Position numbers and translations under genes: made by a program | Source of the DNA: an uncultured Gammaproteobacteria bacterium | GTDB taxonomy: Bacteria; Patescibacteriota; Patescibacteriia; JACQRZ01 | DNA: 64,000 nt | Assembly (NCBI GenBank): GCA_964621085.1 | Contig: CAZUKY010000004.1 | Span: forward strand, 1,266-65,265 | Direction of reading: 5' to 3' | The notes under the pieces: model-generated | Databases searched by the model: none | Seen by the model: only the letters and a program-made list of their open reading frames with translations | What the model was told of the DNA's origin: nothing | Part shown: positions 1-55,675 of the stretch, one piece after another | How positions within the stretch are numbered: the stretch's first letter is position 1 | How the letters are laid out: each line of letters begins with the position of its first letter

Positions 1-1049
1 AGCGAATTTGAATTTTCTGCGACTGCCAATACTTCATCGAAATCTTTGCGGAGAGCCGTGAGTTGGGCGAATACTTTTTTTGCAGTCTCCCTGTCTATCG
101 TTACAGCGCACCCTCCGATCACGGCAACGCCTCGCAAAAACCGGCTGCCGGTAAGACTCTCATTAAGACGCATAATGACTTCGCGCATTCGCGCTCCATT
201 GCTCCCGCCAAAATTATATCCCGTGTCGATCATGATCGCGCCGATATCTCCAAGATGATTTGCGAGTCGTTCAAGCTCTGAAAACACCACGCGAAGCGAC
301 TGCGCATGATCATCGACAGACGTGGAGCTGAGTTCTTCGATCGCCTGACAAAAAGCAAGCGCATGGGCAAACGAACTATCCCCCGATATTCGTTCTGCTA
401 ATCGAACCTTTTCTTCAAGAGGAAGCACTTCGAACAATTTTTCTGTCCCTTTATGCGAGTATCCCAGTCGCGGCTCAAGATACATAATCTCTTCGCCCGC
501 CACACTAAATCGGAAATGTCCTGGCTCAATAATGCCGGCGTGAACGGGACCAACGGGTATTTCATAGATCCCCTCTCCGGTCACCGTATGAAATTCAAAT
601 ACTTCCTTTGCCTGCGGCGGCCGCGCATCCCATGCAACGTCTTTTCTCAAAGGAAATATATTTTTTGGCCAATTTTCATGAAGGATGAGCGAGCGAAGTT
701 CGGGATGTCCCACAGGAATAAGACCAAAAAACGTCGCGATCTTGCGCTCGAAAATCGATGCCTGGTGCATCCATGGCGTCAGTGATGGAAATTCACCATC
801 TGTCTGAATGCTTATGGCGACAAAGATTTTTTCTTCTGGTACAGCAAATATCGCGCAGAGACGAAACAGCTTTGTCTCCTCGCGTTCATCAAGCGCCGTG
901 ATCATTTTCAACTCATGTCCTGCCTCGTGAAACGAACGACATGTCTGTACATAGTCCTGGCAATCGACCTCAGCAAAAACACATGTGCCGTAGCGTGTGA
1001 GCGCTGTATTTGAGGGAAAGAGTGTGCTGTACGCGTTCGATTGGCGCAT
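1..1049 (-). CDS. Group-4 [NiFe]-hydrogenase large-subunit homologue (HycE/HyfG/NuoD-like), 5' part only; the gene runs off the window start. The N-terminal Ni-Fe CxxC motif is replaced (RISGDSS instead of RxCGxC).
   Basis: My reverse-complement translation from the ATG at 1047-1049 reads MRQSNAYSTLF...IPVGPVHAGIIEPGHFRFSVAGEEIMYLEPRLGYSHKGTEKLFE...ERISGDSSFAHALAFCQAIE. The GPVHAGIIEPGHFRF and RLGYxHKGxEK motifs are typical of HycE/HyfG/EchE. There are 4 nt to the upstream gene's stop. Confidence 0.7.
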   Translation of the reverse strand, partial: MRQSNAYSTLFPSNTALTRYGTCVFAEVDCQDYVQTCRSFHEAGHELKMITALDEREETKLFRLCAIFAVPEEKIFVAISIQTDGEFPSLTPWMHQASIFERKIATFFGLIPVGHPELRSLILHENWPKNIFPLRKDVAWDARPPQAKEVFEFHTVTGEGIYEIPVGPVHAGIIEPGHFRFSVAGEEIMYLEPRLGYSHKGTEKLFEVLPLEEKVRLAERISGDSSFAHALAFCQAIEELSSTSVDDHAQSLRVVFSELERLANHLGDIGAIMIDTGYNFGGSNGARMREVIMRLNESLTGSRFLRGVAVIGGCAVTIDRETAKKVFAQLTALRKDFDEVLAVAENSNS

Positions 1050-1053
1050 AATA

Positions 1054-2502
1054 TTACTGATAAAGCGCGGCCGCAAAAAGAAGCTCTTTCATTACGAGCG
1101 GCATATGAATGCTTAAAAGAATCAATACAACAGCAAGAATCGCAGCCGGAACGGTGGTGAATAGATTTATTTCGCCGGTGCGCACCTCTTCAGATGGCGT
1201 TCCAAACATCATAGCAGTTACGTGTCTGAAAAAGCCGGTAAAGACTAAAACAAGCAACGCAAGGATGGCGACAGCAAGATACGGGGAGTACTCAAATGCA
1301 CTCGCCAGTATCATGAATTTTGTCAGAAATATGCCAAAAGGCGGAACGCCGGTGATCGACAAGAATCCGATAAACAAGAGAACGCTTGTCATCGGCAGTG
1401 TGGAGAAAAGACCCTTTATATGCTGAATTTTTGTCGTGCCATATTTCAGAAAAACATTTCCTGCCGTAAAAAAGAGCAGCGCTTTTGTAAGAGAGTGGTA
1501 GATCATATGAAGCACGGCTGCCAGCGCACCGACTCCGCCAATGCCAAATCCAATGGCGAGCAAACCCATGTGCTCAATGCTTGAGTAGGCAAAAAGGCGC
1601 TTGTATTTTTTTTGTGTAAAAATGATGAATGCCGACACGATCAGTGAAATAGTTCCGAATAGTAACAATAGATGCTGGCTGAATGATGGTTCAACGACAC
1701 TATCCGTAATCGCCTTAAATCGCACTATAGCTAAAAATGCGACATTCAGAAGCGTTCCCGAAAGAAGCGCACTTACCGGCGACGGCGCCTTGCTGTGCGC
1801 ATCGGGAAGCCAGGTATGCATTGGCGCGAGACCCATCTTTGTGCCAAATCCTATAAGAACAAAGATGAATCCGATTTGTGTCATAAGCGGATTGAGCGTT
1901 GAAGCGACAGCGGCCAATGAGTCCCATGTAACAAAAGTCTGGCTATGCATGAGTGACGGCGCTGCAAAAAAGAGCAGCATGCCAAAGTATCCCAGGAGAA
2001 GGCCGATCGAGTTAATGAGTAAATACTTCCATGCAGCCTCGGTTGCAGACGGTTTATTGTAAAAGCTCACAAGGAACAATGTTGAAATGGTTGTTGCTTC
2101 AAGCGCAATCCACATAATCACCGGACTGGCCGACGACACGCTCACAAGCATTGCACCGATAAAAATGTGCAAGAGTACAAAGTATTCGCGCACGCGCCGA
2201 AATCCAATAATTTCCTTGCGCACCTCTTCTCGCAGATAGCCGATCGAGTACAGCGAGGCAGCACACCCAATGGCGCCGATGATCGAGAGCACGATAATGC
2301 CCAGCGAATCGAGAGCAAAATATCCGAACGAAAGAGTGTTTTCCTTTTCCAAAAAAGCACGGACAAGAAACACGCCGGCAACGCCTTCAACGATGCACGC
2401 ACATACGGCGATATACTCAAGCGCGCGAATGTTTCCTTTCCGCGGGAGAAGCGAGAGCAGTGCCGCTAGAAATGGTGTTGAAAGAAGATATGCAAGCGAC
2501 AT
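1054..2502 (-). CDS. NuoN/HyfF-like proton-pumping antiporter-type membrane subunit
   Basis: 482 aa and polytopic. It carries the motif WLPDAHSKAPSPVSALLSGTLLNVAFLAI that is characteristic of NuoL/M/N/MrpD/HyfF. Stop is TAA. Confidence 0.75.
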   Translation of the reverse strand: MSLAYLLSTPFLAALLSLLPRKGNIRALEYIAVCACIVEGVAGVFLVRAFLEKENTLSFGYFALDSLGIIVLSIIGAIGCAASLYSIGYLREEVRKEIIGFRRVREYFVLLHIFIGAMLVSVSSASPVIMWIALEATTISTLFLVSFYNKPSATEAAWKYLLINSIGLLLGYFGMLLFFAAPSLMHSQTFVTWDSLAAVASTLNPLMTQIGFIFVLIGFGTKMGLAPMHTWLPDAHSKAPSPVSALLSGTLLNVAFLAIVRFKAITDSVVEPSFSQHLLLLFGTISLIVSAFIIFTQKKYKRLFAYSSIEHMGLLAIGFGIGGVGALAAVLHMIYHSLTKALLFFTAGNVFLKYGTTKIQHIKGLFSTLPMTSVLLFIGFLSITGVPPFGIFLTKFMILASAFEYSPYLAVAILALLVLVFTGFFRHVTAMMFGTPSEEVRTGEINLFTTVPAAILAVVLILLSIHMPLVMKELLFAAALYQ

Positions 2503-2506
2503 AGAT

Positions 2507-3163
2507 CTAATCAGTGAGCTTCTTCATCGCAGCCGTATCGAGCGAGTGGAAGTGACGCATCATAATGGTCGCGAGAACGGATGCGATAATGACCCATATG
2601 AATATGTTCGTTGTGATGCCGAGCTGAAATGCTGAATTTTGCTCAAGGCCGGCAAGGAGCGCAAAGAGTACGATCGTATTTTCAAGCGAGAGGATGCCGA
2701 TCATCTGCGAACCGGCGCCGCGGCGATTGACAATGAGAAAGATCGACATAAGAATCGTTGCAAGTGACAGAACAATCATGTCGGCGTTCGCGGGACTCAG
2801 GAGTGCAAGTTCTCCAAAAATAGTCATTCTCGTAAATGCCACCAAACCCGTAAGAATGAGGAGTGTTAAAGGCAGCGAGCATACCGTCTCCGCTAAAAAA
2901 GTGAGGTTGTATTTCTTGACCAAGTCAAGGAAAAAATACGGCGCAGCAACAACTTTAACGCCAATACTTGCCACGAGGGCAATGACAAGAAGTGCTGTAA
3001 AACTGCCTACCGACGAAAGAATCAGGGCGAGCACTACTGCGATCGACTGCACCATGTAGACATAAATAGCCGTCGAACTCTTTTTTACAAGATGAAGTGC
3101 GACAACTGTAAGAAATACGAATGGAACAAGCAGTGACAGAAGTGAGTATGGAAAAACGGTCAT
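2507..3163 (-). CDS. Small hydrophobic membrane subunit (HyfE/HycC-region-like) of the hyf-like operon
   Basis: The ORF track gives 2507-3286 from an alternative start. The ATG at 3161-3163 (MTVFPYSLLSLLVPFVF...) lies 5 nt after the upstream stop and gives about 218 aa of almost pure TM helices. Confidence 0.5.
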   Translation of the reverse strand: MTVFPYSLLSLLVPFVFLTVVALHLVKKSSTAIYVYMVQSIAVVLALILSSVGSFTALLVIALVASIGVKVVAAPYFFLDLVKKYNLTFLAETVCSLPLTLLILTGLVAFTRMTIFGELALLSPANADMIVLSLATILMSIFLIVNRRGAGSQMIGILSLENTIVLFALLAGLEQNSAFQLGITTNIFIWVIIASVLATIMMRHFHSLDTAAMKKLTD

Positions 3164-3168
3164 ACGAG

Positions 3169-4098
3169 CTACAAAATAAAACCGAGGGCGACAACACTGA
3201 GAACACATGAGGTAAATAACAGGTCGGGCAGTTGAAAAATGCGTAATTTTGCTATGCTGGACTCGATCAAAGCCACAACGAAACATCCGGTAACGAGCTT
3301 CCCAAGAAGAATGCCGAATGCACTGAGTATGCCAAGCACATTGATGTCATGCGCTATTCCCCATGGGAAAAAAAGCTGCACGCCGAGTCCCAAAAAAAGT
3401 GCGTACTTATTCGCCGCCGCCCACTCAATAAGCGCAAGACGTTTTCCTGAATATTCCAAGATCATCGCCTCGTGAATCATCGTTAACTCAAGGTGTGTTG
3501 CAGGGTTATCGAATGGGTACCGGCTTGTTTCTGCCAAGAGTGCAATACCAAAACCCATGCCCGCAAGAACGACCGGCACTGCGTACGCAAGCGGCATGGC
3601 GGCCAGCGTTTGGGCGATCTGAGAAAGGTTTGTCGTGCCTGTTACGAGTGCGAGAACAAACAATGAGAGCACGAGTCCCCCCTCCGCTAATGATGCGACC
3701 ATCATTTCGCGACTCGCGCCAAAACCGCCAAAACCTGAACCACTATCAATGCCTGCGAGCGCTAGAAAGAACGTTCCAAAGGCAAAGAGATACACGACGG
3801 TCAGAAAATCCCCAGTAAGAGCGGTACGCGTGGCGTATGTCAGAAGCGGAACGCTTGCCGCAATGGCAAGTGTTGTCGCGAAAATAACAAAAGGCGCCCA
3901 ACGAAAAATCCATGATGCGTCAGTGCTCATGACCTCATCTTTCTGGAACAATTTCCAAAAATCGCGATACGGCTGAATGACTGATGCGCCTTGGCGATTT
4001 TGGAAAAATGCCTTTACCTTTCTCGTAATACCAATAAGTAGCGGGGCTACTGCCGGCACAAGAAGTATTTGAAGAATCCACGGAAGAGCCATTGTCAT
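3169..4098 (-). CDS. NuoH/HycD-like membrane subunit (formate hydrogenlyase subunit 4 family)
   Basis: 309 aa with N-terminus MTMALPWILQILLVPAVAPLLIGITRKVKAFFQNRQGASVIQPYRDFWKLFQKDEV, a typical NuoH/HycD/HyfC signature. Polytopic. Confidence 0.7.
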   Translation of the reverse strand: MTMALPWILQILLVPAVAPLLIGITRKVKAFFQNRQGASVIQPYRDFWKLFQKDEVMSTDASWIFRWAPFVIFATTLAIAASVPLLTYATRTALTGDFLTVVYLFAFGTFFLALAGIDSGSGFGGFGASREMMVASLAEGGLVLSLFVLALVTGTTNLSQIAQTLAAMPLAYAVPVVLAGMGFGIALLAETSRYPFDNPATHLELTMIHEAMILEYSGKRLALIEWAAANKYALFLGLGVQLFFPWGIAHDINVLGILSAFGILLGKLVTGCFVVALIESSIAKLRIFQLPDLLFTSCVLSVVALGFIL

Positions 4099-5852
4099 AG
4101 CACAAATGCAAGAGCCACTAAAAGAAGCAAAAGGATTACAAACATGTACGAGATATACGCATTGACGCTGCCGCTTTGTATTTTCTTCACAAAGCCGGAC
4201 ATGTTGGCAATAATTTCATACAATCCCTTGACGAGCGTCGACTGATAGACGTCCTTCATGCCAAGCTTCACTTCAGTAAACTTTGGAAAGTAATGGCGCA
4301 CGTCGTCGTAATAATCAACTCGTCGCACGACAACGGGAAACAGAAAACGCTTAAACACCGTGATCAAGGAGCGTGAAAAGCCCGTTGCTGTAATTTCCAT
4401 TCGTGGCGTAAGATCGACGCCGCAATCCCACGTGCGTCCAAATCGAATGCGGCTTTGGGAAGAAATAATGCGGACCATATAATAGATGCCGCCAAGGGCA
4501 ACAACCAGTGCAATGAAAATGGCGGGCGTTGAAAGTGCTGCAAAGCCGGCATCAATATTCCACGCAGATGCAGTCACGCCAGCCCTTAAGGGGACAAACT
4601 GCTGAAGCGATTGGGCGATCCGTTGAAGGAATGGGGTTATTGAACCGGCGGAAAGTCCCGCAATCAACGTAAGCGCTGCAAGAAACGCCATACTCAGGAC
4701 CTGCGATGCTGAGGACTCGCGGGCGTGCTGCGCTTCGTCGCTCCGCGGACGAGCCAAAAACGTAACGCCAAATGCCTTTACAAAGCACGCGGCAGCCAAA
4801 CCGCCAGTAAATGCCAATGCTCCTATCGCGAGTATAAAGACAATCTTTGTTCCCACAAAAAATGTCTCATTCACCGCAAAGAGCGATTGGAATGTCAACC
4901 ATTCGCTCACAAAACCATTGAACGGGGGAAGCGCTGAAATCGCCATTGAACCAACAAGAAAGAAAAACGCCGTAAGGGGCATTCCCTTAATTAATCCTCC
5001 GTACTCTTCAATATTCCGCGTATGCGTCTGATTGATGACAGATCCTGCACCGAGGAATAAAAGCGCCTTGAAGATCGCGTGATTCAATGTATGAAAAAGG
5101 CATGCGATGATGCCAATAGTTGCAGCTTCATTCATGCCAGCCGAGAGAAACACCAACGAACTTCCCATGCCCAGTAAGATAATGCCGATATTTTCAATAC
5201 TATGATAGGCAAGGAGTCTTTTGATATCATGTTCCGCAAGCGCATACAGCACGCCAAGTAATGATGAAATCGAACCAAGAACAAGCACGGTACCGCCGAT
5301 CCACTGAGGAGTTGCAGGGAAAAAATCAAATAAAATGCGTACAAGCATGTAAATCCCGGTTTTGATCATCACCCCGGACATGAGCGCAGAGACGTGTGAT
5401 GGGGCAGCCGGATGAGCACTTGGAAGCCAGATATGCAGCGGAATGACGCCAGCCTTTGTTCCGAACCCGATCAGGACGCACGCAACTATGAGAATCTGCG
5501 TGAGGAGGGGCGCTGTGCCAAGCGATGCTTGTATCGTGTCAAAGTCAAATGAACCCGTTGCGCGATATATGAGCAAAAAAGCTGCGACGATAAATGCGGT
5601 TCCGATATGTGTCATGATGAAGTACAACGTGCCCGCTTTTACGTTTTCTTCTTCGCGACTTTCATAGACAACCAAAAAGTACGACGCGAGCGACATGAGC
5701 TCCCAGACAATCAAGAAGAAAAGCGCATGATGGGCAGTAACAACCAAAATCATGCTTGCGATAAAAAGGTGATAGAAGAAATTGAGGACACCGATATTTG
5801 CTTTTCCAAAATAGTGTTGTGCGTACCCAAAAGCATAGATTGAACACGGCAA
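4095..5852 (-). CDS. NuoL/HyfB/HycC-like antiporter-type membrane subunit. This is the ORF downstream of an in-frame TGA; see the next feature.
   Basis: 585 aa with the motif WLPSAHPAAPSHVSALMSGVMIKTGIYMLVR. The ORF-track start is TTG. The frame stays open upstream to a TGA at about 6027-6029. Confidence 0.65.
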   Translation of the reverse strand: MPCSIYAFGYAQHYFGKANIGVLNFFYHLFIASMILVVTAHHALFFLIVWELMSLASYFLVVYESREEENVKAGTLYFIMTHIGTAFIVAAFLLIYRATGSFDFDTIQASLGTAPLLTQILIVACVLIGFGTKAGVIPLHIWLPSAHPAAPSHVSALMSGVMIKTGIYMLVRILFDFFPATPQWIGGTVLVLGSISSLLGVLYALAEHDIKRLLAYHSIENIGIILLGMGSSLVFLSAGMNEAATIGIIACLFHTLNHAIFKALLFLGAGSVINQTHTRNIEEYGGLIKGMPLTAFFFLVGSMAISALPPFNGFVSEWLTFQSLFAVNETFFVGTKIVFILAIGALAFTGGLAAACFVKAFGVTFLARPRSDEAQHARESSASQVLSMAFLAALTLIAGLSAGSITPFLQRIAQSLQQFVPLRAGVTASAWNIDAGFAALSTPAIFIALVVALGGIYYMVRIISSQSRIRFGRTWDCGVDLTPRMEITATGFSRSLITVFKRFLFPVVVRRVDYYDDVRHYFPKFTEVKLGMKDVYQSTLVKGLYEIIANMSGFVKKIQSGSVNAYISYMFVILLLLLVALAFVL

Positions 5853-6140
5853 GGCAATGAGCGAAATAAGAAAAACAAAAAACGACGATAATGCATCGAC
5901 GTGAATGCTGTAAGAAAGAAGCGGCAGTGTTGACGGCAGATTGACAGCTACTGCCGAACCAGTGAAAAGGAGCAGGGCCGAGAAAACAATGCCATAACAC
6001 GAGCCGAGAATGGCAATCGCGCTACCTCAAAACCGCGCTGCGGCGTCGTCCTTCTGAAAAAGGAGCGACCCAAGGGCGCCAATCACAAAAATACCGAGGA
6101 GGGTAAAATAGCTCTGCGATGAGACAAACGCGTCAAACAT
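5853..6140 (-). pseudogene. N-terminal segment of the hyfB-like gene, separated from the body by an in-frame TGA (possible pseudogene, sequencing error or read-through).
   Basis: ATG at 6138-6140, 5 nt after the upstream stop. Translation is MFDAFVSSQSYFTLLGIFVIGALGSLLFQKDDAAARF*GSAIAILGSCYGIVFSALLLFTGSAVAVNLPSTLPLLSYSIHVDALSSFFVFLISLIALPCSIYAFGY, continuous with the 4095-5852 ORF. It aligns to the HyfB N-terminal TM region (…DSLSAFMVLVISLL…). Confidence 0.5.
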
Positions 6141-6144
6141 ATAC

Positions 6145-6663
6145 TTAGGAGCGCTTCTGCCTTGTCTCAATATCACCCAAAATCTGATAGAGAGCGCTTA
6201 TGATTTGCGAGGGCGTCGGCGGATCTCCCGGAATGCCGTATTGTACGGGAACAACAGCAGCTGCGCCATCCATTACCGCATATGATCCCTTAAAAATCCC
6301 ACCGTCAATCGCATCGTCGCCAAGCGCAACTACGATTTTTGGCTCTGGTGTTGCATCGACCGTTCTTCTGAGTGCTTCTGCCATATTGCGGCTTACCGGG
6401 CCGGTGACGATGACCATATCCGCGTGCCGCGGCGAGGCGACAAAGTGTATGCCAAAACGCTCCACATCATAGTATGGATTGCCGAGTGCGACGAGCTCCT
6501 GCTCGCATGCGTTCGTCGAACCTGCCGTTACGACGCGTATTGCAAGCGAACCATTAAAAAGTTTTTTTATTTTTTTCTGAATTTTTGGACCGAGTTCAAC
6601 AACATGCGCCTGCGCGTCGGGTACCGCGCGCTGCACATGCGTAGAAAGAATTTTTGTATACAT
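6145..6663 (-). CDS. NuoB/HycG-like 'hydrogenase small subunit' homologue with 3 of the 4 [4Fe-4S]-ligating cysteines lost
   Basis: 172 aa. RFGIHFVASPRHADMVIVTGPVSRN and PEPKIVVALG match HycG/NuoB. The cysteine positions read GSTNACEQE (vs GSCNGCDIE), ALGDDAIDGG (vs IGACPTGG) and IPGDPPTP (vs VPGCPPRP). I verified this codon by codon. Confidence 0.75.
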   Translation of the reverse strand: MYTKILSTHVQRAVPDAQAHVVELGPKIQKKIKKLFNGSLAIRVVTAGSTNACEQELVALGNPYYDVERFGIHFVASPRHADMVIVTGPVSRNMAEALRRTVDATPEPKIVVALGDDAIDGGIFKGSYAVMDGAAAVVPVQYGIPGDPPTPSQIISALYQILGDIETRQKRS

Positions 6664-6742
6664 ACCAGAAGACCAACTGGCTTACTCTGACCTCAATTTC
6701 GTCAATAGTGAACATGGTAACACGAACAAAAAAACACGCAAG

Positions 6743-6771
6743 AGTATGTAAATATAATCTTTTTTTGTCAA
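6743..6771 (-). promoter_or_regulatory. Sigma70-type promoter of the hyf-like operon (-35 TTGACA, 17-nt spacer, -10 CATACT)
   Basis: On the minus strand I read TTGACAaaaaaagattatatttaCATACT, about 75 nt upstream of the small-subunit start. Confidence 0.45.
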
Positions 6772-6831
6772 TGTATTTCGATGCAAATTGATCTGCCTGC
6801 TCTGTGAGGGAGCCCCAGAGACATATCAGTA

Positions 6832-7650
6832 CTACTTCCGATATACTTCGATCATAGCGGTTGTACGTTTTCCCAAGGGACGGTGGATGCCGGACTCATA
6901 GTTGTGGAGCGCGCGCTCGAGCAGAGCGGCTGCATACCGATACCCCTCCCCTTTGCGGGTGCCCGGATCATTGGTGATAAACTCATGTGTTGCCGGATCG
7001 TATCCGCGTACGACAAGCATGTGGCGTTCAGGTCCGGGCGGCGTGTAGTTCGGGTTTTTCAGGATGCGACCATTGAGGGGTACGATCACAATCGCCCCCT
7101 CGCCCAGCGCATCAATAATATCCTGCACGTCGATATCTTTTTTTACCGACAGGCGGTCATGTTTGTAATACTCACGCATGAGCACGGCCGTATCCTCGGC
7201 TGAGGTGTCCTGATAGTACCCGCGCGTCTTTTCCTGATATGCCGAGAGTTTACGCAGTTCGGCCTCCTGCTCTGCCAGACTCATGGAACGCCCGCTAAGC
7301 CACAGATGTGCCATGATTAGTGAGGCTTCCTCGCACCCGTCCTGAAACCGCGGCTCGCTCCACTTGCCAAACGGCGCCTGCACGACAAACGGCACGGCAA
7401 TATCAATGAGTCTGGGTTTTTGCGGCATTTCGGGGACAGAAACTGGCACCTCCTCCCCGTCGCGACTCTTGCCTTTATCGCTATCTCCAACAGTTTTCTC
7501 GGATTTTTCATCCGATTCTGAAGGTTGCTCAACGGCAAACGGCGCATCGCGAAACGGAGACGTCCGCGGGTAGATTCCGTAGACGATCGCAATCGCTGCT
7601 CCGGTCGCAAACCCGATGAGCGTTAGCAGTATTGCCAAGAAAAGCTTCAT
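6832..7650 (-). CDS. Membrane-anchored C39-like (Peptidase_C39_2-type) cysteine peptidase domain protein
   Basis: 272 aa. It has an N-terminal TM helix, an acidic linker, then QDGCEEASLIMAHLWL (candidate catalytic Cys) and HMLVVRGYD (candidate His/Asp). Confidence 0.45.
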   Translation of the reverse strand: MKLFLAILLTLIGFATGAAIAIVYGIYPRTSPFRDAPFAVEQPSESDEKSEKTVGDSDKGKSRDGEEVPVSVPEMPQKPRLIDIAVPFVVQAPFGKWSEPRFQDGCEEASLIMAHLWLSGRSMSLAEQEAELRKLSAYQEKTRGYYQDTSAEDTAVLMREYYKHDRLSVKKDIDVQDIIDALGEGAIVIVPLNGRILKNPNYTPPGPERHMLVVRGYDPATHEFITNDPGTRKGEGYRYAAALLERALHNYESGIHRPLGKRTTAMIEVYRK

Positions 7651-7723
7651 ATTTCTTTATTCTTTGAAGAATGAAGCTATCACAAAGATCGGCACCGCGC
7701 AACCGTCTCTCTGCGAATCTCAT

Positions 7724-8557
7724 CTATCGCGCCAGCAGCGAGATGCCAAGGGCCGTCAATCCGAAAAAAATCGCCTTCTCGCCGATGTGGCGCTCATGAA
7801 AATGCGCTGCGCCGGCGATAATACTCCATCCCAACGATGATGCGCGCTGCACAGCGACCAGTACCGATGCGGGAGCAAACAGATACGCAAAACTGCCGAT
7901 TAGCGTTCCAAGACCGCAGGCAGCCGCCTCTCCCATAATACGCCGGGAGCGAAGCAGTCGTAACGGGTTTTCCTTCATTTTTGAAACGGCGTGCCAGAAA
8001 AAATACGGCAATATAAGCGCATGCGCCAACAATTGCTCTGCAGCGACCGAGTTATAGTGAGTGATGTCATACTTGTACAGCGATATAGTAACTGCAGAGA
8101 TGACTGTCGATGCAAGGGCAAATCCGAGACCCTTACGCGTAAGCGACCCGCGCGCCGTCAGAATAGTCAGCGCAAACATGATCGTCACGATTCCGATCAG
8201 CTGCCACGTGGAAAAATGCTGACCCAGTACTACATCAATCCCAAGCACCAGCGGAATCGTCATAACGCGCATGAATGAAAACGTACTCCGATCTGCGCGA
8301 ACGATCGCCGTGATCGTGATATGGGTGAGAATAATCTCGATGATGACGCGCGACAGAAAGATCGGCAGCGACGCGAGCGAAAAGTGCCACGTAGCGCCGG
8401 CAACCACGCTGACTGCAAGAAAAAACATCCCCCATAATCCGGTCAGAAATGCGCGAGTTGACACGCTCTCCAGATGCTTCTGAATAGATTCCTTAGCACT
8501 AGAAGTGGAGAGTTCGGCAAAAAAAGTTGAAATGATAACAAGAAAAACGCCGATCAC
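7724..8557 (-). CDS. Polytopic membrane protein (DMT/EamA-like?). The start is uncertain.
   Basis: 277 aa with roughly 8-10 TM helices and GTG as the ORF-track start. There is no room for a promoter between it and the atpC terminator, so the real start may be internal. Confidence 0.35.
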   Translation of the reverse strand: MIGVFLVIISTFFAELSTSSAKESIQKHLESVSTRAFLTGLWGMFFLAVSVVAGATWHFSLASLPIFLSRVIIEIILTHITITAIVRADRSTFSFMRVMTIPLVLGIDVVLGQHFSTWQLIGIVTIMFALTILTARGSLTRKGLGFALASTVISAVTISLYKYDITHYNSVAAEQLLAHALILPYFFWHAVSKMKENPLRLLRSRRIMGEAAACGLGTLIGSFAYLFAPASVLVAVQRASSLGWSIIAGAAHFHERHIGEKAIFFGLTALGISLLAR

Positions 8558-8572
8558 ACGAAATACAATAAA

Positions 8573-8600
8573 GAAGTGTCAGATGACACTCCTTTATTGT
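8573..8600 (-). terminator. Weak hairpin downstream of atpC
   Basis: agtgtc-agat-gacact stem-loop flanked by an A-run and a T-run. It is short and marginal. Confidence 0.25.
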
Positions 8601-8621
8601 ATCAAAAATGCATTAGAGCGC

Positions 8622-9038
8622 TTACTGCGCGCGGTGGCGATATTTTCTTGCTGCCTTGATGCGCGCAAGCTCTTTTTCCATCTTTGCCGCAATCAGGGCG
8701 TACTCTTCCTGATCCATGTGCTTTTCGCTCAACAGTTCCTGCGCTCGGGCGTGCGCCTCTTCTGCCCGTTCGAGGATGATCTCCTCGACGCGCTCGGCAG
8801 TATCGGCAAGGATCGTGACGCCGCCTGTGCGCACCTGCACCCATCCGCCGGAAACGGCCAAGGGAATCTCGGCACCGTCCTTCTTGGCCCGAATTTCACC
8901 AGCCTTCAAAATGCCGACGAGCGGCACGTGGTGGGGCAAAACCGTAATCTCGCCATCTGCCGTGGGCACGGTGACCTGATCCACCTCTTGGGACACCACC
9001 TCTCGCTCGGGCGTGATGATCTTGAGATTCATCGGCAT
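8622..9038 (-). CDS. atpC: F0F1 ATP synthase subunit epsilon
   Basis: 138 aa, MPMNLKIITPEREVV…, sitting at the 3' end of the operon. Confidence 0.85.
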   Translation of the reverse strand: MPMNLKIITPEREVVSQEVDQVTVPTADGEITVLPHHVPLVGILKAGEIRAKKDGAEIPLAVSGGWVQVRTGGVTILADTAERVEEIILERAEEAHARAQELLSEKHMDQEEYALIAAKMEKELARIKAARKYRHRAQ

Positions 9039-9060
9039 AAATAATTCAAATACGGATCAA

Positions 9061-10446
<1,386 letters not shown>

Positions 10447-10563
10447 TTATTCACATTTGTTTTTGATAATAAATGTCCATGATCCTCTAGACAAATTTAA
10501 CGGTTCTGCTATCGTACCTTTTCGTCCTAATCCGCAGCCATTTTCGAGGAGGAGTCGAGAAGC

Positions 10564-11124
10564 ATGGCGAGAGGCCTTCAACAGGAAATGCCGTCACTGT
10601 CGTATCTTGGCACCGATCTCGGGCCGGATGCGAGTATCTGGATAACTCAGCAGGATCGAAATGCGCGACTGTACGGGAACAATACCCAGCGGCTCACGCA
10701 CTGCTACATCGGCAGCATTCCAGACGTGGTCGGCGAAGAGTACCTCGAACAACTAGTCCTTCGACTCATCGAGGTTGTGGATAAGAGCCCGCACGCGGCC
10801 ATTTCGGTCAGCTACGGCAGCCCGTTCGCGATTCACGTGCCAGTCCGGTGGATCCGCTCCCGCGTTCCGGGAACGTCCAACGAGTCGGCGCCGCGGCTGG
10901 AGGTGATCCTTCCTGTAAAGGAGCCGGGTGCCGTACCGCAATGGATGAACGCCATGCATCGGCGAACGCTCCGGCGGATAACCGACTTCGGGAGTCCCTT
11001 GAACGGATTCCTTACGGTGCCGATCGCGATCGATACGCTGGAGCCCCCATTGCGCGCGCGCAGACTCATGCAGTTCCTCATGGTTCCCGACTACACGGTG
11101 ATCTACCGCTCGGTTTCGTCGTAG
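10564..11124 (+). CDS. Hypothetical protein. A GC-rich opposite-strand gene inserted between atpG and atpD.
   Basis: 186 aa, GC-rich, with a GAGGAGG SD about 10 nt upstream of the ATG. A candidate promoter TAGACA-N16-TATCGT lies at 10493-10520 and an imperfect hairpin with a T-run follows at 11144-11178. Its composition is unlike the flanking atp genes. Confidence 0.5.
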   Translation: MARGLQQEMPSLSYLGTDLGPDASIWITQQDRNARLYGNNTQRLTHCYIGSIPDVVGEEYLEQLVLRLIEVVDKSPHAAISVSYGSPFAIHVPVRWIRSRVPGTSNESAPRLEVILPVKEPGAVPQWMNAMHRRTLRRITDFGSPLNGFLTVPIAIDTLEPPLRARRLMQFLMVPDYTVIYRSVSS

Positions 11125-11143
11125 GGACCCGGATCGCATGCAT

Positions 11144-11178
11144 TCCCTTTTTCGCCGGTACGGCCTGCCCGTATCGGC
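11144..11178 (+). terminator. Hairpin with T-tract after the inserted ORF
   Basis: gccggtacgg-cctgc-ccgtatcggc followed by gcttcttttt. Confidence 0.4.
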
Positions 11179-11198
11179 GCTTCTTTTTGAAGAACAAC

Positions 11199-12074
11199 CT
11201 ATTCCAGTGCCGCCTTGCCAGAAGAGATCTCCGCAATTTCTTGCGTGATTGCGGCTTGGCGTGCCTGGTTGTATGTGAGGCGCAAGTCGGACAGCATGTC
11301 TGTTGCGGCCTCGGAGGCGTTGTGCATAGCAAGCATGCGCGCGCTATGCTCGGACGCTTCCGAATCCAAAACAGCCTGGTACAGATGAGTTTCAAGAATT
11401 CGCGGCAACATGTGCGAGACCACATCTGACGGCGACGGCTCGAATACGACCTGCGAGAGCAACTCCTCCTTTTCTTCGGAAAGAGGACGGAACGCACCGA
11501 ACGGCAACAGCTGTCTCACGGTCGCCTGCTGTCTCACGGTCGAGAGGAACTCGGTAAAAACCAGGAATACGCGATCAAGCGCGCCTTCGGAGTATGTGCG
11601 GATAATGACGGATGCAAGTGGCAGGATATCCGTGACAGACCGCGTGATGTCTTCTTTCGGGAAGTCGGCCGTAATGCTGTGCCCGTACCGCATGCAATAA
11701 TCGCGGATCCGGCGCCCGAGCGTATAGAGTTCGATATGAACCCCCTCGCTCTTCAGACGCGCGATCTGACCGTGCGCAGCGGCGGCGAGGTTGGCGTTGA
11801 AGCCGCCGCACAATCCCCGATTTGTGCCAATTGCAATAATACCGACGCGACGCACAGGCCGTTCGGCAAGGAGCGGATGCATATTCTTCTCGATCCGCGG
11901 CATCAGGTACGATACGACCTCCTCTGCCGATACGGCATACGGACGCGAGGCCGCTGCCGCTGCAACACTCCTCCGCATTTTTGCAGCAGAAACAAGCTCC
12001 ATCGCCTTTGTCATTTTTTTGGTGTTGGAGATGGACTTGATTTGTCGGCGGATTGTCAGCGCGCCCTTTGCCAT
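11199..12074 (-). CDS. atpG: F0F1 ATP synthase subunit gamma
   Basis: 291 aa, MAKGALTIRRQIKSISNTKKMTKAMELVSAAKMRR. Confidence 0.9.
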   Translation of the reverse strand: MAKGALTIRRQIKSISNTKKMTKAMELVSAAKMRRSVAAAAASRPYAVSAEEVVSYLMPRIEKNMHPLLAERPVRRVGIIAIGTNRGLCGGFNANLAAAAHGQIARLKSEGVHIELYTLGRRIRDYCMRYGHSITADFPKEDITRSVTDILPLASVIIRTYSEGALDRVFLVFTEFLSTVRQQATVRQLLPFGAFRPLSEEKEELLSQVVFEPSPSDVVSHMLPRILETHLYQAVLDSEASEHSARMLAMHNASEAATDMLSDLRLTYNQARQAAITQEIAEISSGKAALE

Positions 12075-12106
12075 GTTCGAGTTTCCTAGCTGATTAGCTT
12101 GTCGTT

Positions 12107-13627
12107 TTAGCTAAAGAGTTTTTTGTATTCTGCGATCGCTGTTTTCAACCCGTTTTCCGTCTCTTCGCTCATGTCTCCGCTTGCGATGCCTTCAAGGACC
12201 CCAGATACTTGAGAGCGAAGGTAGTCAAGAAATCCGTCTTCGAATGCCTTAATGCGATCAAGCGGAATGTCATCCAGATGTCCGTTCACGCCAGCATAGA
12301 GCACGGCGACCTGTTGGGCAACCGGCACTGGCTGGTACTGGCCCTGCTTCAAGATCTCTGTCAGGCGCGCACCGCGATTGATCTGCTTCTGGGTCGCCTC
12401 GTCAAGATCGGAACCGAACTGCGCAAAGGCGGCGAGTTCGCGATACTGCGCAAGATCCAAGCGAAGCTTGCCGGCGACTTTTTTCATTGCCTTTGTCTGA
12501 GCTGCCGATCCCACGCGGGAAACCGACAAGCCGACGTTGAGCGCCGGGCGGATGCCCTGGTAAAACAGGTCTGTCTCAAGATAAATTTGTCCGTCAGTAA
12601 TCGAGATGACGTTTGTCGGAATATAAGCAGAGACATCGCCGGCCTGCGTCTCGATAATCGGCAGCGCAGTCAGCGATCCGCCGCCGAAATCCTTGCTTAG
12701 TTTTGCCGCGCGCTCCAAAAGGCGCGAGTGCAGGTAAAAAATGTCGCCCGGATACGCCTCGCGGCCCGGCGGGCGGCGCAGCAAGAGCGAGATCTGTCGG
12801 TACGCGACCGCGTGTTTGGAGAGGTCGTCGTAGACGATCAGCACGTCCTTGCCCTGATCCATGAAGTACTCGCCTATCGCGCAGCCGGCAAACGGCGCCA
12901 GATAGGAAAGGGATGCGGGATCCGACGCGCCAGCCAAAACGACGATCGTATACTCCATCGCTCCCTCCTGGTGTAATCGCGAGACGATTTTTGCGACCTT
13001 GGATTCTTTCTGTCCGACGGCAACGTAGATGCAGATAACCTCTTTGTCCGTTCCCTTAAACTGCCGCTGATTCAATATCGCATCGATGGCAACAGCGGTC
13101 TTTCCGGTCTGGCGGTCACCGATAACCAACTCACGCTGTCCGCGGCCGATCGGGATCATCGCATCGATCGCCTTGATTCCGGTCTGCAGCGGCTGGTGGA
13201 CGGACTGGCGCGTAATAACGCCCGGCGCGATTTTTTCAACCGGATAGAATGCCGCTGCTTTTATCTGCGCTCCGCCGTCAAGCGGTTTTCCCAGCGGATC
13301 TACTACGCGGCCGATGAGCCCATCGCCGACTGGCACTTCCAAGATGCGCCCTGTTCCTTTCACCAGATCTCCTTCTTTGATTTTTTCGAAATCTCCCAGA
13401 ATCATCGCGCCGACTGCGTCTTCTTCAAGGTTCAAGACAACGCCAAAAACGGTCTCGCCGTCATGTTCGCCAAAGTCAAGCATTTCCGATTGTCGCACAC
13501 GGGACAGTCCCGCAACTTTTGCGATGCCGTCGCCAACCTCGATAACATGGCCGACATCGCTTTTTTCGATATCCGCCTTGTAGGCTTCGAGGTTTTTCTG
13601 CAGTGATTCGATGAGGTAATTGGACAT
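12107..13627 (-). CDS. atpA: F0F1 ATP synthase subunit alpha
   Basis: 506 aa with a P-loop and typical alpha-subunit motifs. Confidence 0.95.
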
Positions 13628-13660
13628 ACAATAGATTCAAAATTCCTCGCTTATGGCGCA

Positions 13661-14059
13661 CTATGCCCGAAGGATGTGTCTGATTTTTTCAAGGCGCCGC
13701 CGGATGCTTGCGTCGATCATTACATCGTCTGCGATTATTTTTACGCCGCCGATAAGCGACGCATCGATCTCGACACTCAGATCGTAGCTCCCCTTTCCGA
13801 AGGCATCGTCGAGTGCGGCAGACAGCTTTTTTTCAAGTGCGGGATCCTCGTGCGCCACTGTCGCACGAACCCCAACGCGTCCCGACTTCCGTCTGACTTC
13901 GCGTTCGACTGCCGTTATGGCGGCGGCGGCGAGTCGAAGCTTCCCCCGCCGTCCAAGGTGTTCGATGAAGCGGCGCGAGAGCTCATCGATCTCTTTTTTC
14001 TGCTTGCCGTCGGCCAACTCTACGAGTGCGGCGGCATAGCGGGTCGGGGTAAACTTCAT
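13661..14059 (-). CDS. atpH: F0F1 ATP synthase subunit delta (OSCP), short form
   Basis: 132 aa, placed between atpF and atpA, and overlapping atpF by 4 nt. Confidence 0.7.
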   Translation of the reverse strand: MKFTPTRYAAALVELADGKQKKEIDELSRRFIEHLGRRGKLRLAAAAITAVEREVRRKSGRVGVRATVAHEDPALEKKLSAALDDAFGKGSYDLSVEIDASLIGGVKIIADDVMIDASIRRRLEKIRHILRA

Positions 14060-14568
14060 AGGTTATTGGCTTTTTGGACGGCTTTTTCGAGCACCGCGGA
14101 AGGAACCGACGTTTCCATCCCTTCCTGCAATGCACGCTTTGCGGCATCCACAACCAGATCGGACAGATGGCGCTTCGCGTCCTCAAGCATCTGTTCCTTT
14201 TCCTGAGCAATCGCGCGCTTCGCATCCGCGATAACCCCCGCCACCTCGCTCTTGGTTTTCTCAAGCATATCGTCGCGCTTCTTCTGACCGAGCTCGTTCG
14301 CCGTCTCGAGAAGTCGCGCAGCCTCTTTCTTTGCCTCTTCGATGATCGCCGCGCGTTCTATGTCGGTCTGCACGAGTCGCTCCTCGATCGCGCGCGCATC
14401 GGCAAGACTCTTCTCAATGGCCTGCTGCCGCTTCTCCATCACGCCCAGGAGCGGACGGTACAAAAAACGATACAGCAGAAAAAGCAGGATCGCGAAATTC
14501 ACGAGCTGCGCTATGAAAAGTTTCCAATCAACGCCGAGTGTCTGAAGAATTTCCATGTTCGTCTGCAA
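14056..14568 (-). CDS. atpF: F0F1 ATP synthase subunit b
   Basis: 170 aa with one N-terminal TM helix and a long charged coiled coil. Confidence 0.8.
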   Translation of the reverse strand: MQTNMEILQTLGVDWKLFIAQLVNFAILLFLLYRFLYRPLLGVMEKRQQAIEKSLADARAIEERLVQTDIERAAIIEEAKKEAARLLETANELGQKKRDDMLEKTKSEVAGVIADAKRAIAQEKEQMLEDAKRHLSDLVVDAAKRALQEGMETSVPSAVLEKAVQKANNL

Positions 14569-14588
14569 GGAAGAGACTTCCTCTCTGT

Positions 14589-14861
<273 letters not shown>

Positions 14862-14944
14862 TTATTGATTAGCAGCTCTTAACTTCTCGCTTCCAGCTGC
14901 CAAAAAAGCGTCTGAAAACGAGGAGTCACAAGCCCAGCGCATCC

Positions 14945-15685
14945 TCAATGATGCGCCTCCTCGCTTGCCATTTGCATAAAGACAAGCGTCAGCATGGCAA
15001 AGACAAGCGCCTGAATGAATCCCACAAAAACCTCCAAGGCCATGAATGGCAGCGGAATGAAGTACGGAACCAAAAACAGCATGACTGCCAACAGCACCTC
15101 TCCCGCAAAGATATTCCCAAAAAGGCGGAAGGTGAAGGAGATGACCTTCGCAAACTCGGAGACCAGCTCGAGGATGCCAACGAAAAAGTTGATCGGGCTT
15201 GAAAAGTTCAGAAATTTCGCGGCGTATTTCCCAAACCCAATGCTTGCGACGCCGACGATCTGGACAATGATCATCGAGAGAAGCGCAAGCATCAAGGTAA
15301 AATTCAGGTCGGCGGATGTTGCGCGGAATAACGGAATGATCGACTCCTTTCCATCATGCGTCTCAACGATGCCGATTGCGCCGACACCCGGCAAGAGTCC
15401 CGCCCAGTTGACACTGAGAACAAAGATGAAGATGGTCGTGATCAACGGGAAAAACCGAATGGATTTCTGCCGATCGCGCGTTACGCTGTCGATAACCCCC
15501 AAGATCGCATCGAAAAGCGCCTCAAAAAAGTTCTGAAGACCGCTTGGCACTTGCCGCAACTGCCGCGTCGCAAGCAATCCCATGATGATGAGGAGCGCAG
15601 AAACGGCCCACGCGACGATCATACTGTTTGTCACAGGAAAGCCAAAGAGGTAAAAAAGCGTTTCTGCGTAAATGGATACGTGCAT
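14945..15685 (-). CDS. atpB: F0F1 ATP synthase subunit a
   Basis: 246 aa, polytopic, at the position of subunit a in the operon. Confidence 0.85.
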   Translation of the reverse strand: MHVSIYAETLFYLFGFPVTNSMIVAWAVSALLIIMGLLATRQLRQVPSGLQNFFEALFDAILGVIDSVTRDRQKSIRFFPLITTIFIFVLSVNWAGLLPGVGAIGIVETHDGKESIIPLFRATSADLNFTLMLALLSMIIVQIVGVASIGFGKYAAKFLNFSSPINFFVGILELVSEFAKVISFTFRLFGNIFAGEVLLAVMLFLVPYFIPLPFMALEVFVGFIQALVFAMLTLVFMQMASEEAHH

Positions 15686-55609: not shown

Positions 55610-55675
55610 ACGCGGTACATACTTTTGAAAAAAGAGAATTTCCTTAGCGAAGTATATCATTGTTGATGAGTACTG

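Follow-up and report, generated by a model that had tools for sequence, protein, structure and literature searches.

What could a hydrogenase-like complex do if it cannot bind its metals? The question is raised by an operon at the start of the window (the whole 64,000-nucleotide stretch of DNA that was analysed), whose small- and large-subunit homologues were reported in a first-pass annotation to have lost the metal-ligating cysteines.

Gene content of the operon

Six genes in the order ehrS-A-B-C-D-L were located by ORF analysis and family searches at positions 1-6663, all on the minus strand. The first, ehrS (6663-6145), encodes a NuoB/HycG-like small subunit of 172 aa (PF01058, E 2e-23). 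It is followed by ehrA (6140-4095; 681 codons) for a HyfB/NuoL-like antiporter-like subunit (NCBIfam hydrogenase-4 subunit B, 674 bits), ehrB (4098-3169) for a NuoH/HycD-like membrane anchor of 309 aa (PF00146, E 1e-45), ehrC (3163-2507) for a HyfE-like membrane subunit of 218 aa (NF008556 hydrogenase-4 membrane subunit, E 3e-13) and ehrD (2502-1054) for a HyfF/NuoN-like antiporter-like subunit of 482 aa (PF00361 and NF005044, 456 bits). The last gene, ehrL (1049-1), encodes the large-subunit homologue, a NuoC-NuoD fusion (PF00329 and PF00346) of which 349 of the 519 aa lie in the window. The family matches for all six proteins bore out the hyf/hyc-like gene content described earlier, with the small-subunit homologue placed first. 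For ehrC, a longer ORF starting at 3286 was rejected in favour of the ATG at 3163, based on the 218-aa gene calls in two other contigs, L001 and L082. The 168-base gap upstream of ehrS contains a promoter-like site (6743..6771, minus strand; TTGACA, 17-base spacer, CATACT), which scored 10/12 in a consensus scan and is a pattern match only.

Together the subunits have the architecture of a compact machine resembling hydrogenase-4 or complex I. Its cytoplasmic cap, formed by the NuoB-like S and the NuoC-NuoD-like L, sits on the NuoH-like anchor B, and the HyfE-like C and the two Mrp-type antiporter-like subunits A and D round off the complex. The best named UvrB matches were to Uhrbacteria and Patescibacteria (66-71% identity), and the closest named relatives of the host are Candidatus Uhrbacteria.

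Cofactor sites and identity of the complex

To locate the [4Fe-4S] ligands, ehrS was aligned by HMMER to the solved HycG (7Z0S_G), MbhJ (6CFW_J) and complex-I PSST. The motifs fell where the earlier reading had them, with GSTNAC under G(G/S)CNGC, GDD under GAC and GDPP under GCPP. These alignments upheld three replaced ligands, namely ligand 1 as Thr50 (6514-6516), ligand 3 as Asp117 (6313-6315) and ligand 4 as Asp147 (6223-6225), all on the minus strand. The reported loss of the cluster cysteines needed amending for ligand 2, Cys53 (6505-6507, minus strand), which is retained and is the sole cysteine of the whole protein. With three of the four ligands missing, an N2-type cluster has apparently been lost, as the annotation had supposed. 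The AlphaFold model of ehrS was of low quality (pLDDT 41.5).

Of the 120 small-subunit homologues that matched best, 118-120 share the ehrS substitutions (T109/D6/S5, C119/E1, D120 and D118/N2 at the four ligand positions), and the Thr-Cys-Asp-Asp pattern is conserved within the ehrS clade. Further cluster-less groups have no Cys at any ligand position, their patterns being S/T/N-E-G-D and D-A/T-D-N.

The large subunit was aligned to HycE, MbhL and Nqo4. The ehrL sequence RISGDSSFAH aligns with RVCGICGFAH of HycE, so that both N-terminal Ni-Fe cysteines are serines in the motif R220-I-S222-G-D224-S225 (S222 at 384-386 and S225 at 375-377, minus strand), and the reading of RxCGxC as RISGDS stands. 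The annotation had also pointed beyond the window start, for the large-subunit C-terminus and for a HycF/NuoI-like subunit. This region was taken from the overlapping Logan contig L001, which matches window positions 1-9904 with 0 mismatches and runs 1240 bases beyond the window. The complete ehrL lies at 8856-10415 of L001 and encodes 519 aa ending ...INKSFNLSYSGNDL, whereas true hydrogenases of the same family carry ...INKSFELCYSCxDR at the large-subunit C-terminus; the C-terminal CxxC is therefore absent. Recovery of this end leaves all four Ni-Fe ligands missing, in agreement with the proposed loss of NiFe binding.

The Cys-less substitutions of the large subunit were found in 120/120 of its best homologues, each with an ER[IV]SGDSSF[SA]H-type motif and a C-terminal end ...SY[ST]G.D. 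Since the replacements recur in these and in 118-120/120 small-subunit homologues, they are not due to chance. In the former Ni-Fe pocket of ehrL, a conserved polar set (S-G-D-S/T plus S-Y-S/T-G) has taken the place of the original residues without drift, and the loop HAGIIEPGHFRF is invariant. The residues of Nqo4 His38 and Tyr87 align with Ile and Gly, respectively.

No HycF/NuoI-like gene follows ehrL in L001; the next gene matches no Pfam family and shows no conservation across relatives. Across the compared loci, no conserved redox gene was found beside the operon. Having no Ni-Fe ligands, only one of the four cluster ligands, no NuoI/HycF-like domain or gene and no quinone-site His/Tyr, the complex has no recognisable electron path. 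It would likewise be unable to make or use H2, because the large-subunit CxxC pairs, the small-subunit cluster, the ferredoxin subunits and a formate dehydrogenase gene are all missing.

This combination (Ni-Fe site lost, cluster ligands mostly lost, antiporter subunits kept, no ferredoxin-like subunit) supports the initial assignment to the energy-converting-hydrogenase-related (Ehr) type, which is described as a group 4 hydrogenase relative lacking the Ni and Fe ligands and having Mrp-like subunits (PMC6349859). The class was named about 20 years ago and has been surveyed (Coppi; Marreiros 2013), to go by the passages of PMC6349859 and PMC4758237 that cite this work. Examples are GSU0739-45 of Geobacter sulfurreducens and the Ehr of Margulisbacteria, Saganbacteria, Nitrospira and ammonia-oxidising archaea, and Jaffe et al. 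2020 reported a monophyletic CPR-specific Ehr clade whose large subunit is without Ni-Fe cysteines (PMC7304191). The kind is already known, CPR included. It is very probable that ehrS-A-B-C-D-L encodes a CPR-type Ehr complex in a Patescibacteria bacterium.

Membrane arm, selection and genomic neighbourhood

Aligned to MbsH and MbhH, ehrD showed the Glu of TM5, the Lys of TM7, the His/Lys of TM8 and the Lys of TM12. The TM5, TM7 and TM8 residues are shared by A and D, each of which has Lys or Glu in TM12, consistent with the earlier statement that the antiporter machinery is kept, and many acidic residues of ehrB were at least 95% conserved among 29-33 clade members; the charged positions of the membrane arm are thereby essentially invariant. 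Compared with the relative L082, every one of the six genes had a dN/dS of 0.09-0.11 at a dS of about 1. All six are under strong purifying selection, and the sequences of the best homologues indicate that the complex is clearly maintained at clade level and is not decaying.

In this genome, an in-frame TGA occupies codon 38 of ehrA (6027-6029, minus strand), where the closest relative has TGG (Trp). The identical base was recovered when run SRR5011273 was assembled independently, 8 of the 35 window genes end in TGA as a normal stop codon, and use of the next in-frame start (TTG at 5852) would cost about 95 N-terminal residues. The operon could accordingly be a recently inactivated remnant, in which the nonsense codon abolishes the complex and nothing functional is made. 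This was judged unlikely, given that purifying selection covers all six genes, the 37 pre-stop ehrA codons included, that no other stops or frameshifts occur, and that the clade as a whole maintains the complex. Moreover, the change is a single transition, which might reflect a minority variant or an error in the consensus, or be subject to low-level Trp read-through. The ehrA copy, with its recent TGG-to-TGA change, may be inactive, polymorphic or read-through-dependent.

Upstream of ehrS lies an F-type ATP synthase operon (8622..15685, minus strand), recognised from ORFs, Pfam-labelled counterparts in L082 and L088, and phmmer matches. It comprises atpB (15685-14945), atpE (14843-14589; c subunit, PF00137), atpF (14568-14056), atpH (14059-13661), atpA (13627-12107), atpG (12074-11199), atpD (10431-9061) and atpC (9038-8622), of which atpB, atpF and atpH were named by position and gene order only. 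The c subunit is of the proton type. Here, two unrelated genes, one with no family match (8557-7724) and one peptidase-C39-like (7650-6832), part the ehr operon from atpC together with the promoter-like site.

Genes for ATP synthase adjoin 15 of the 37 informative cluster-less, S-first loci, compared to 0 of about 106 loci with a four-Cys small subunit (Fisher p = 1e-10, shared ancestry uncorrected); about 60% of the informative cluster-less loci lie away from atp genes. The linked loci are scattered across the clade, their small subunits being as little as 46% identical. In six loci, 3-132 bases lie between the stop codon of atpC and the start of ehrS; L088 has a full atpIBEFHAGDC cluster that stops 3 bases ahead of ehrS. 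At a single locus, L085, a carbonic-anhydrase-like CDCA gene was seen between atpC and ehrS.

Possible functions and relation to known systems

Drawing on sequence and gene neighbourhood, we tentatively favour as the most likely function, at rather less than an even chance, ion translocation that is independent of redox chemistry and coupled to the work of the ATPase. When this mechanism is taken jointly with the identity of the complex, a compromise estimate comes out slightly on the favourable side. The complex would not be a redox enzyme; it would move ions as a secondary translocator, whether by proton/cation antiport or through a gated path for protons. Transport would be performed by the membrane arm, and the cofactor-less cap would stay on to cover or regulate it, with conserved carboxylates in the pockets that once held metal (Asp117 and Asp147 of S, Asp224 of L). 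Cooperation with the ATPase is inferred from how often the operon follows the F1Fo ATP synthase genes or lies among them, and from the proton-type c subunit. In a fermenting cell with no respiratory chain, the ATPase would spend ATP on a proton gradient, which the ehr complex would use or convert for Na+/K+ or pH homeostasis.

Alternatively, the cap may have acquired new non-redox chemistry or ligand sensing, by which it would drive or gate the membrane arm. It might, for instance, hydrate CO2, as in cyanobacterial NDH-1/Cup complexes, or bind a metabolite or ion in the pocket that once housed the Ni-Fe site. The undrifted polar residues of that pocket, the invariant loop and the CDCA neighbour would suit this proposal. 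It nevertheless appears improbable, as the CDCA gene neighbours one locus only, the operon has no conserved accessory gene, no recognisable catalytic motif was seen, and family searches gave the cap proteins no other activity.

Least probable is a redox-driven pump with a non-canonical cofactor, a cluster or single metal on Cys53, Asp117 and Asp147, and with its electron donor and acceptor supplied by genes outside the operon, such as those for a formate dehydrogenase. The near-invariance of these three residues in the main clade suggests a functional site, and Asp is a cluster ligand in a few proteins; to our knowledge, however, one Cys, two Asp and a Thr match no known [4Fe-4S] site, and electron-transport chains are generally absent from CPR genomes. 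A partnership of formate dehydrogenase with Ehr has been proposed for Margulisbacteria and Saganbacteria (PMC6349859), and Geobacter Ehr subunits go up on formate (PMC7894505). Against such a pump in the present case, the other cluster-less groups dispense with Cys at the ligand positions altogether, no NuoI-like domain could feed electrons, neither a Ni-Fe nor a quinone site could accept them, and no redox gene is conserved nearby.

The redox-independent translocator takes its working model, by analogy, from the Mrp antiporter, in which MrpA/MrpD-type subunits move ions without redox input; deactive complex I also behaves as a Na+/H+ antiporter (PMC3464577). Unlike Mrp, the operon encodes no homologues of MrpB, MrpC, MrpE, MrpF or MrpG (the Na+-module) and includes a NuoB/NuoCD/NuoH cap, and antiport by ehr is a prediction only. 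With complex I/NDH-1 it shares NuoB, NuoC, NuoD and NuoH homologues and NuoL/M/N-type subunits with the same Glu/Lys/His chain, but it has only two antiporter-like subunits, no N2 cluster, NuoI or N module, and Ile and Gly for the quinone-site His38 and Tyr87 (Thermus numbering).

The subunit families are also those of the HycG/HycE hydrogenase, HycG (E 2e-26) and HycE (E 1e-44) being the best PDB matches, and the loop GPxHAGIIEPGHFRF of true hydrogenases of the same family is identical in ehrL. Unlike these, it has no CxxC pair at either end of ehrL and no small-subunit cluster, and both a formate dehydrogenase gene and the ferredoxin subunits HyfA/HyfH/HycB/HycF are missing.

Ehr complexes have in common with it a group-4-related large subunit without any of the Ni-Fe cysteines, the fusion of NuoC to NuoD, and NuoH-like and HyfE-like subunits with two antiporter-like subunits. 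Many of their small subunits are 260-350 aa long and encoded last (A-B-C-D-L-S), a length that fits the NuoB-NuoI fusion reported in PMC6349859, whereas ehrS is encoded first, has 172 aa and is without the NuoI part. Most surveyed Ehr small subunits keep four cysteines while ehrS keeps one ligand, which makes this loss the less trivial part, and in the loci surveyed ATP synthase linkage was confined to the cluster-less group. The nearest counterpart is the CPR-specific clade of Ehr described by Jaffe et al. 2020, and ehrL groups with CPR large subunits. To the published CPR Ehr the present analysis adds the Thr-Cys-Asp-Asp small-subunit pattern, purifying selection and the atp linkage, the points of interest being the loss of the cluster site and the frequent attachment to the ATP synthase operon.

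Gene content and large subunit of the operon

Positions 1-6663 of the window are filled by a minus-strand run of six genes, ehrS, ehrA, ehrB, ehrC, ehrD and ehrL (products S, A, B, C, D and L), which very probably encode an energy-converting-hydrogenase-related (Ehr) complex of the CPR (Patescibacteria) type. The first gene, ehrS (6663-6145, 172 aa), matched PF01058 (NuoB/small subunit, E 2e-23) and no other family, and a NuoI-like ferredoxin fusion was absent. It is followed by ehrA (6140-4095, 681 codons; PF00361 and the NCBIfam model 'hydrogenase 4 subunit B', 674 bits), ehrB (4098-3169, 309 aa; PF00146, NuoH/HycD), ehrC (3163-2507, 218 aa; HyfE model, E 3e-13), ehrD (2502-1054, 482 aa; PF00361 and 'hydrogenase 4 subunit F', 456 bits) and ehrL (1049-1, 349 aa and cut by the window edge; PF00329 and PF00346), in which NuoC and NuoD are fused as they are in HycE/HyfG. 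The open reading frames and family matches of the six genes bear out the hyf/hyc-like gene content and order proposed in the first-pass annotation.

Family searches found no 4Fe-4S dicluster domain or gene in the operon, and neither these nor the ORFs indicated any further membrane gene belonging to it. The sequence beyond the window start was taken from the Logan contig L001 (run SRR5011273), which showed 0 mismatches to window positions 1-9904 and then continued for 1240 bases. In this contig, no seventh subunit and no NuoI/HycF gene was found 3' of ehrL; the next gene was rejected as either, based on its lack of a family match and on the differing gene content at this position in close relatives, with no conservation even against the closest relative, L082.

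The G+C content of the operon was 0.475-0.488 over window positions 1-6000, below the 0.52-0.57 of the next 26 kb (6001-32000), and the AT skew was strong, at about 0.23 over 2001-6000. This composition could reflect the encoding of membrane proteins or lateral acquisition; lateral transfer of CPR Ehr genes was inferred by Jaffe 2020 (PMC7304191).

In the large subunit, RISGDSSFAH was aligned under RVCGICGFAH of HycE and RMCGICSFSH of MbhL, in agreement with the initial reading of the N-terminal Ni-Fe motif as RISGDS. The window stops short of the C-terminal motif; the full L recovered from L001 is 519 aa long and ends with INKSFNLSYSGNDL. When C-terminal ends were compared in one alignment, including INKSFELCYSCxDR of true hydrogenases of the same family and IIASLDPVMGDVDR of Thermus Nqo4, NLSYSGNDL of L corresponded to ELCYSCxDR, showing that the CxxC is also gone. 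Ser, Ser, Ser and Gly stand in place of the cysteines of L1 (RxCGxCxxxH) and L2 (DPCxxCxxR); from the N-terminal alignment and the recovered C-terminus together, all four Ni-Fe ligands are therefore lost. Every one of the 120 top-ranking large-subunit homologues (54-83% identity) had the Cys-less motifs. The quinone ligands of complex I were likewise absent in the alignment, Nqo4 His38 corresponding to Ile and Tyr87 to Gly.

Small subunit, selection and the ehrA stop codon

S was aligned with HMMER, without ambiguity in the motif positions, to small subunits of solved structures, namely HycG of the E. coli formate hydrogenlyase (7Z0S), MbhJ (6CFW) and mitochondrial PSST. The S motif VTAGSTNACEQE was aligned under the reference VDCGGCNGCEIE, LGDDAIDGG under YGACGNSGG and IPGDPP under IPGCPP. 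Based on this alignment, ligands 1, 3 and 4 of the proximal cluster are Thr50, Asp117 and Asp147, while ligand 2 is kept as Cys53, the sole cysteine of the protein. The earlier claim that three cysteines had been replaced therefore stands, as does the apparent loss of the N2-type cluster, with Cys53 alone kept. Among the 120 small-subunit homologues that matched best (63-88% identity), these ligand positions were occupied by Thr (109), Asp (6) or Ser (5); Cys (119) or Glu (1); Asp (120); and Asp (118) or Asn (2), respectively. The replacement pattern is itself conserved, hence neither decay nor chance. An AlphaFold2 model of S, built from a 28-sequence alignment of window proteins and returned homologues only, had a mean pLDDT of 41.5, too low for the model to be of use.

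The complex is thus without Ni-Fe ligands, the proximal-cluster ligand set, a ferredoxin module and the quinone-site residues. The antiporter-like subunits A and D retain the TM5 Glu, TM7 Lys and TM8 His/Lys, with TM12 being Lys in D and Glu in A. Across 29-33 members, these transport residues and the acidic series of the NuoH-like B were at least 95% conserved. In comparison with L082 (JGI sample 3300013136), dN/dS was 0.09-0.11 for each of the six genes at a dS of ~1. All six genes are under strong purifying selection and the membrane arm is intact, which, together with the lost ligands, supports the earlier reading of an Ehr-like module that has kept its antiporter machinery.

An in-frame TGA was found at codon 38 of ehrA (6027-6029, minus strand), where L082 has TGG (Trp). 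The same base was present in the independent Logan assembly, which may derive from the same underlying data as the window assembly. An alternative genetic code was ruled out by the TGG of the relative and by the ordinary use of TGA as a stop in 8 of the 35 long window genes, ehrA itself among them; given this ordinary use of TGA in other window genes, the change is a nonsense mutation and not recoding. Both flanks of codon 38 are still conserved, so the change is recent, polymorphic or an error common to both assemblies. A fresh inactivation of the operon in the window genome alone, to which the stop codon would point, is considered rather unlikely alongside the constraint seen in all six genes.

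Survey of Ehr loci and linkage to the ATP synthase

A survey for the large-subunit family, in which one genome per species was scanned, returned at least 591 loci spread over many bacterial and archaeal phyla. Nearly all of the large subunits were without Ni-Fe cysteines, which is Ehr as defined in the literature (PMC6349859, PMC4758237, PMC10284858, PMC10432482). Two operon layouts were seen, A-B-C-D-L-S (S-last) and S-A-B-C-D-L (S-first). Most Ehr small subunits retained the four cluster cysteines (GSCNGCE, GxC, GCPP), and the S-last ones were often 260-350 aa long. This length fits a NuoB-NuoI fusion, as reported for the Ehr of Margulisbacteria and Firmicutes (PMC6349859, supplementary note 4), a feature of some Ehr and not all.

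The cluster ligands were lost in three Ehr groups. The first is the clade of the window operon, S-first with the pattern T/D/S - C - D - D; the second is also S-first, with the pattern x-E-G-D (L049, L054, L072); and the third is S-last, with the pattern D-A/T-D-N and zero Cys (L143, L150, L155, L162 and L163, with L150 on a 778-kb contig). The separate S-last group suggests, on the basis of these motifs, that ligand loss may be recurrent.

In a neighbour-joining tree, which was distance-based, without support values and with Jaffe's sequences left out, the main clade was sister to all other Ehr. It included loci of Daviesbacteria, Magasanikbacteria, Falkowbacteria and Saccharibacteria, and also some MAGs labelled Thermoleophilia, Firestonebacteria, Endomicrobiales, Bdellovibrionales and Syntrophales. 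An Rfam scan of the window gave no RNA family and no ribosomal RNA, and taxonomy was taken instead from UvrB, for which the best matches were proteins of Candidatus Uhrbacteria and Patescibacteria. From these sequence comparisons, L very probably belongs to the CPR-specific Ehr clade and the host is a CPR bacterium. Jaffe et al. 2020 (BMC Biol 18:69; PMC7304191) found the CPR sequences to be monophyletic within Ehr and apart from other Ehr, without metal-binding cysteines, and noted that they 'likely cannot interact with H2'; its main text is silent on the Ehr small-subunit cluster ligands, the antiporter subunits and the ATP synthase. A search of the literature on hydrogenase-4-like or antiporter-like complexes of CPR/Patescibacteria found nothing beyond that paper. 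Since both Ehr and its CPR clade have been described before, the novelty is modest; the small-subunit state and the gene neighbourhood may be the new part.

Several other features were seen in passing. A Nitrospirota contig carries a tandem pair of complete Ehr operons (L046 and L057), whose large subunits belong to different branches of the tree. In L090 (13513-16950), within a long contig of probably non-CPR origin, a cluster-less Ehr operon is fragmented into many short ORFs, either by frameshift error or by decay, and adjoins MTHFR genes and a gene for a 1497-aa multi-domain flavoprotein/ferredoxin-like protein. Elsewhere in the window, two large proteins (36956-38740, 594 aa; 52556-55660, 1034 aa) have a bacterial TSP3 repeat as their sole recognisable domain, and ORFs of 778 aa (55729-58065) and 496 aa (20446-21936) had no Pfam match.

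Upstream of ehrS on the minus strand lies an F-type ATP synthase operon, atpB to atpC (15685-8622), with two genes between, encoding a protein of 277 aa that matched no family (8557-7724, minus) and a peptidase-C39-like protein (7650-6832, minus). This insertion was seen in the window genome only; in L082, where both genes are absent, 102 bases separate the end of atpC from ehrS. In L088 (Patescibacteria), 3 bases lie between a complete atpIBEFHAGDC cluster and ehrS, and the gaps in L102, L111, L092 and L101 are 9, 12, 130 and 132 bases, respectively. In L002 (Daviesbacteria) and L085 the Ehr operon separates atpD from atpC and runs on the opposite strand, and in L122 the atp genes are downstream of it. 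L085 also carries, between atpC and the small-subunit gene (9177-9815), a cadmium carbonic anhydrase repeat gene (PF18484, E 5e-8), seen at this one locus only.

In total, atp genes adjoin 15 of the 37 informative cluster-less S-first loci, in three arrangements (the window, L082, L088, L002, L085, L086, L003, L016, L054, L092, L093, L101, L102, L111 and L122), the other 22 being without such neighbours, compared to 0 of ~106 loci at which the small subunit has all four Cys (Fisher p = 1e-10, a value that overstates independence because the loci are related). The linked loci occur at scattered places in the clade, their small subunits sharing as little as 46% identity. The c subunit of the window operon is without the Gln and Ser/Thr that bind Na+, and therefore reads as proton-type; a Na+-type ATP synthase as the rationale for the linkage is unsupported on the same residues.

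Proposed mechanism and relation to known systems

The CPR lineage of the host is generally described as being without respiratory chains. Judged from its residues and gene neighbourhood, the complex is tentatively proposed to be a redox-independent secondary ion translocator, a reading held at somewhat less than even confidence. Such a complex would not be drivable by electron transfer and would act as an antiporter of protons and cations or else as a gated path for protons, with the cap (S and L) staying as a lid or regulator that carries conserved carboxylates in the former metal pockets. It could serve ion or pH homeostasis by drawing on or converting the proton gradient generated at the expense of ATP, as suggested by the co-location of the operon with a proton-type ATPase. 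Deactive complex I offers a precedent: its antiporter-like subunits, when no longer coupled to the redox domain, are reported to exchange Na+ for H+ (PMC3464577).

The cap might instead have acquired new non-redox chemistry or a sensing role, which is regarded as unlikely. A non-canonical metal site within the complex, served by redox partners encoded elsewhere, is more improbable still.

An extension of the ion-translocator proposal, which we regard as doubtful, is that one branch of the complex-I/hydrogenase superfamily has lost all of its redox cofactors and now serves the F-type ATP synthase, in CPR and in some other bacteria, as an accessory driven by ions alone; the cluster ligands appear to have gone in at least three Ehr groups (main S-first, x-E-G-D and S-last D-A/T-D-N). 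If true, the core job of Ehr complexes generally would seem to be independent of electron transfer, and the ATP synthase of CPR bacteria, a long-standing puzzle in cells that do not respire, would gain a defined partner. The large conserved set of variants without Ni-Fe, iron-sulfur cluster or ferredoxin subunit amounts to a natural experiment in which the work, of whatever kind, is done without electrons, giving a view of what the cap contributes to complex-I-like machines apart from redox chemistry, and the six subunits form a minimal target for cryo-EM and transport assays. The recurrent joining with the ATP synthase operon points to a way in which ultra-small fermenters that have no respiratory chain may manage membrane ion gradients, and this linkage, with the absent iron-sulfur sites, makes the long-standing question of what Ehr complexes do easier to put to the test. 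Current labels such as 'hydrogenase' or 'NADH-quinone oxidoreductase subunit' invite wrong inferences on H2 or NADH metabolism.

Among known systems, the group 4 [NiFe] hydrogenases (Hyf/Hyc/Ech/Mbh) have L1 and L2 motifs with four Cys, which are absent from the window L, and four proximal-cluster Cys, whereas S has Thr50, Cys53, Asp117 and Asp147. No Hyp maturation genes or endopeptidase were met within the 64-kb window, the sole part of the genome covered. The nearest catalytic relatives were five true [NiFe] hydrogenases among the Ehr matches (L042, L048, L074, L079 and L080), with motifs RICGxC... and CY[SA]CxDR, an identical A-B-C-D-L-S layout and the HAGIIEPGHFRF loop in common; their shared gene order is in keeping with published work that places Ehr close to group 4f. 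Complex I (NDH-1) has the quinone-site His38 and Tyr87 and an N2 cluster, in contrast to the Ile and Gly of L and to S, which is without N2 ligands. Mrp antiporters have a full MrpA-G set including the small Na+-module subunits, while the window operon has only the MrpA/D-type A and D; this incomplete set bears only on membership and not on antiporter-like working of the complex. The Ehr complex is the closest match. Some Ehr have the NuoB-like subunit fused to a NuoI-like ferredoxin domain, whereas S is unfused; as in Ehr, L is homologous to the large subunits of group 4 [NiFe] hydrogenases without the four Ni-Fe-binding cysteines, and a NuoH-like anchor (B) and antiporter-like subunits (A and D, with the HyfE-like C) are co-encoded with it.
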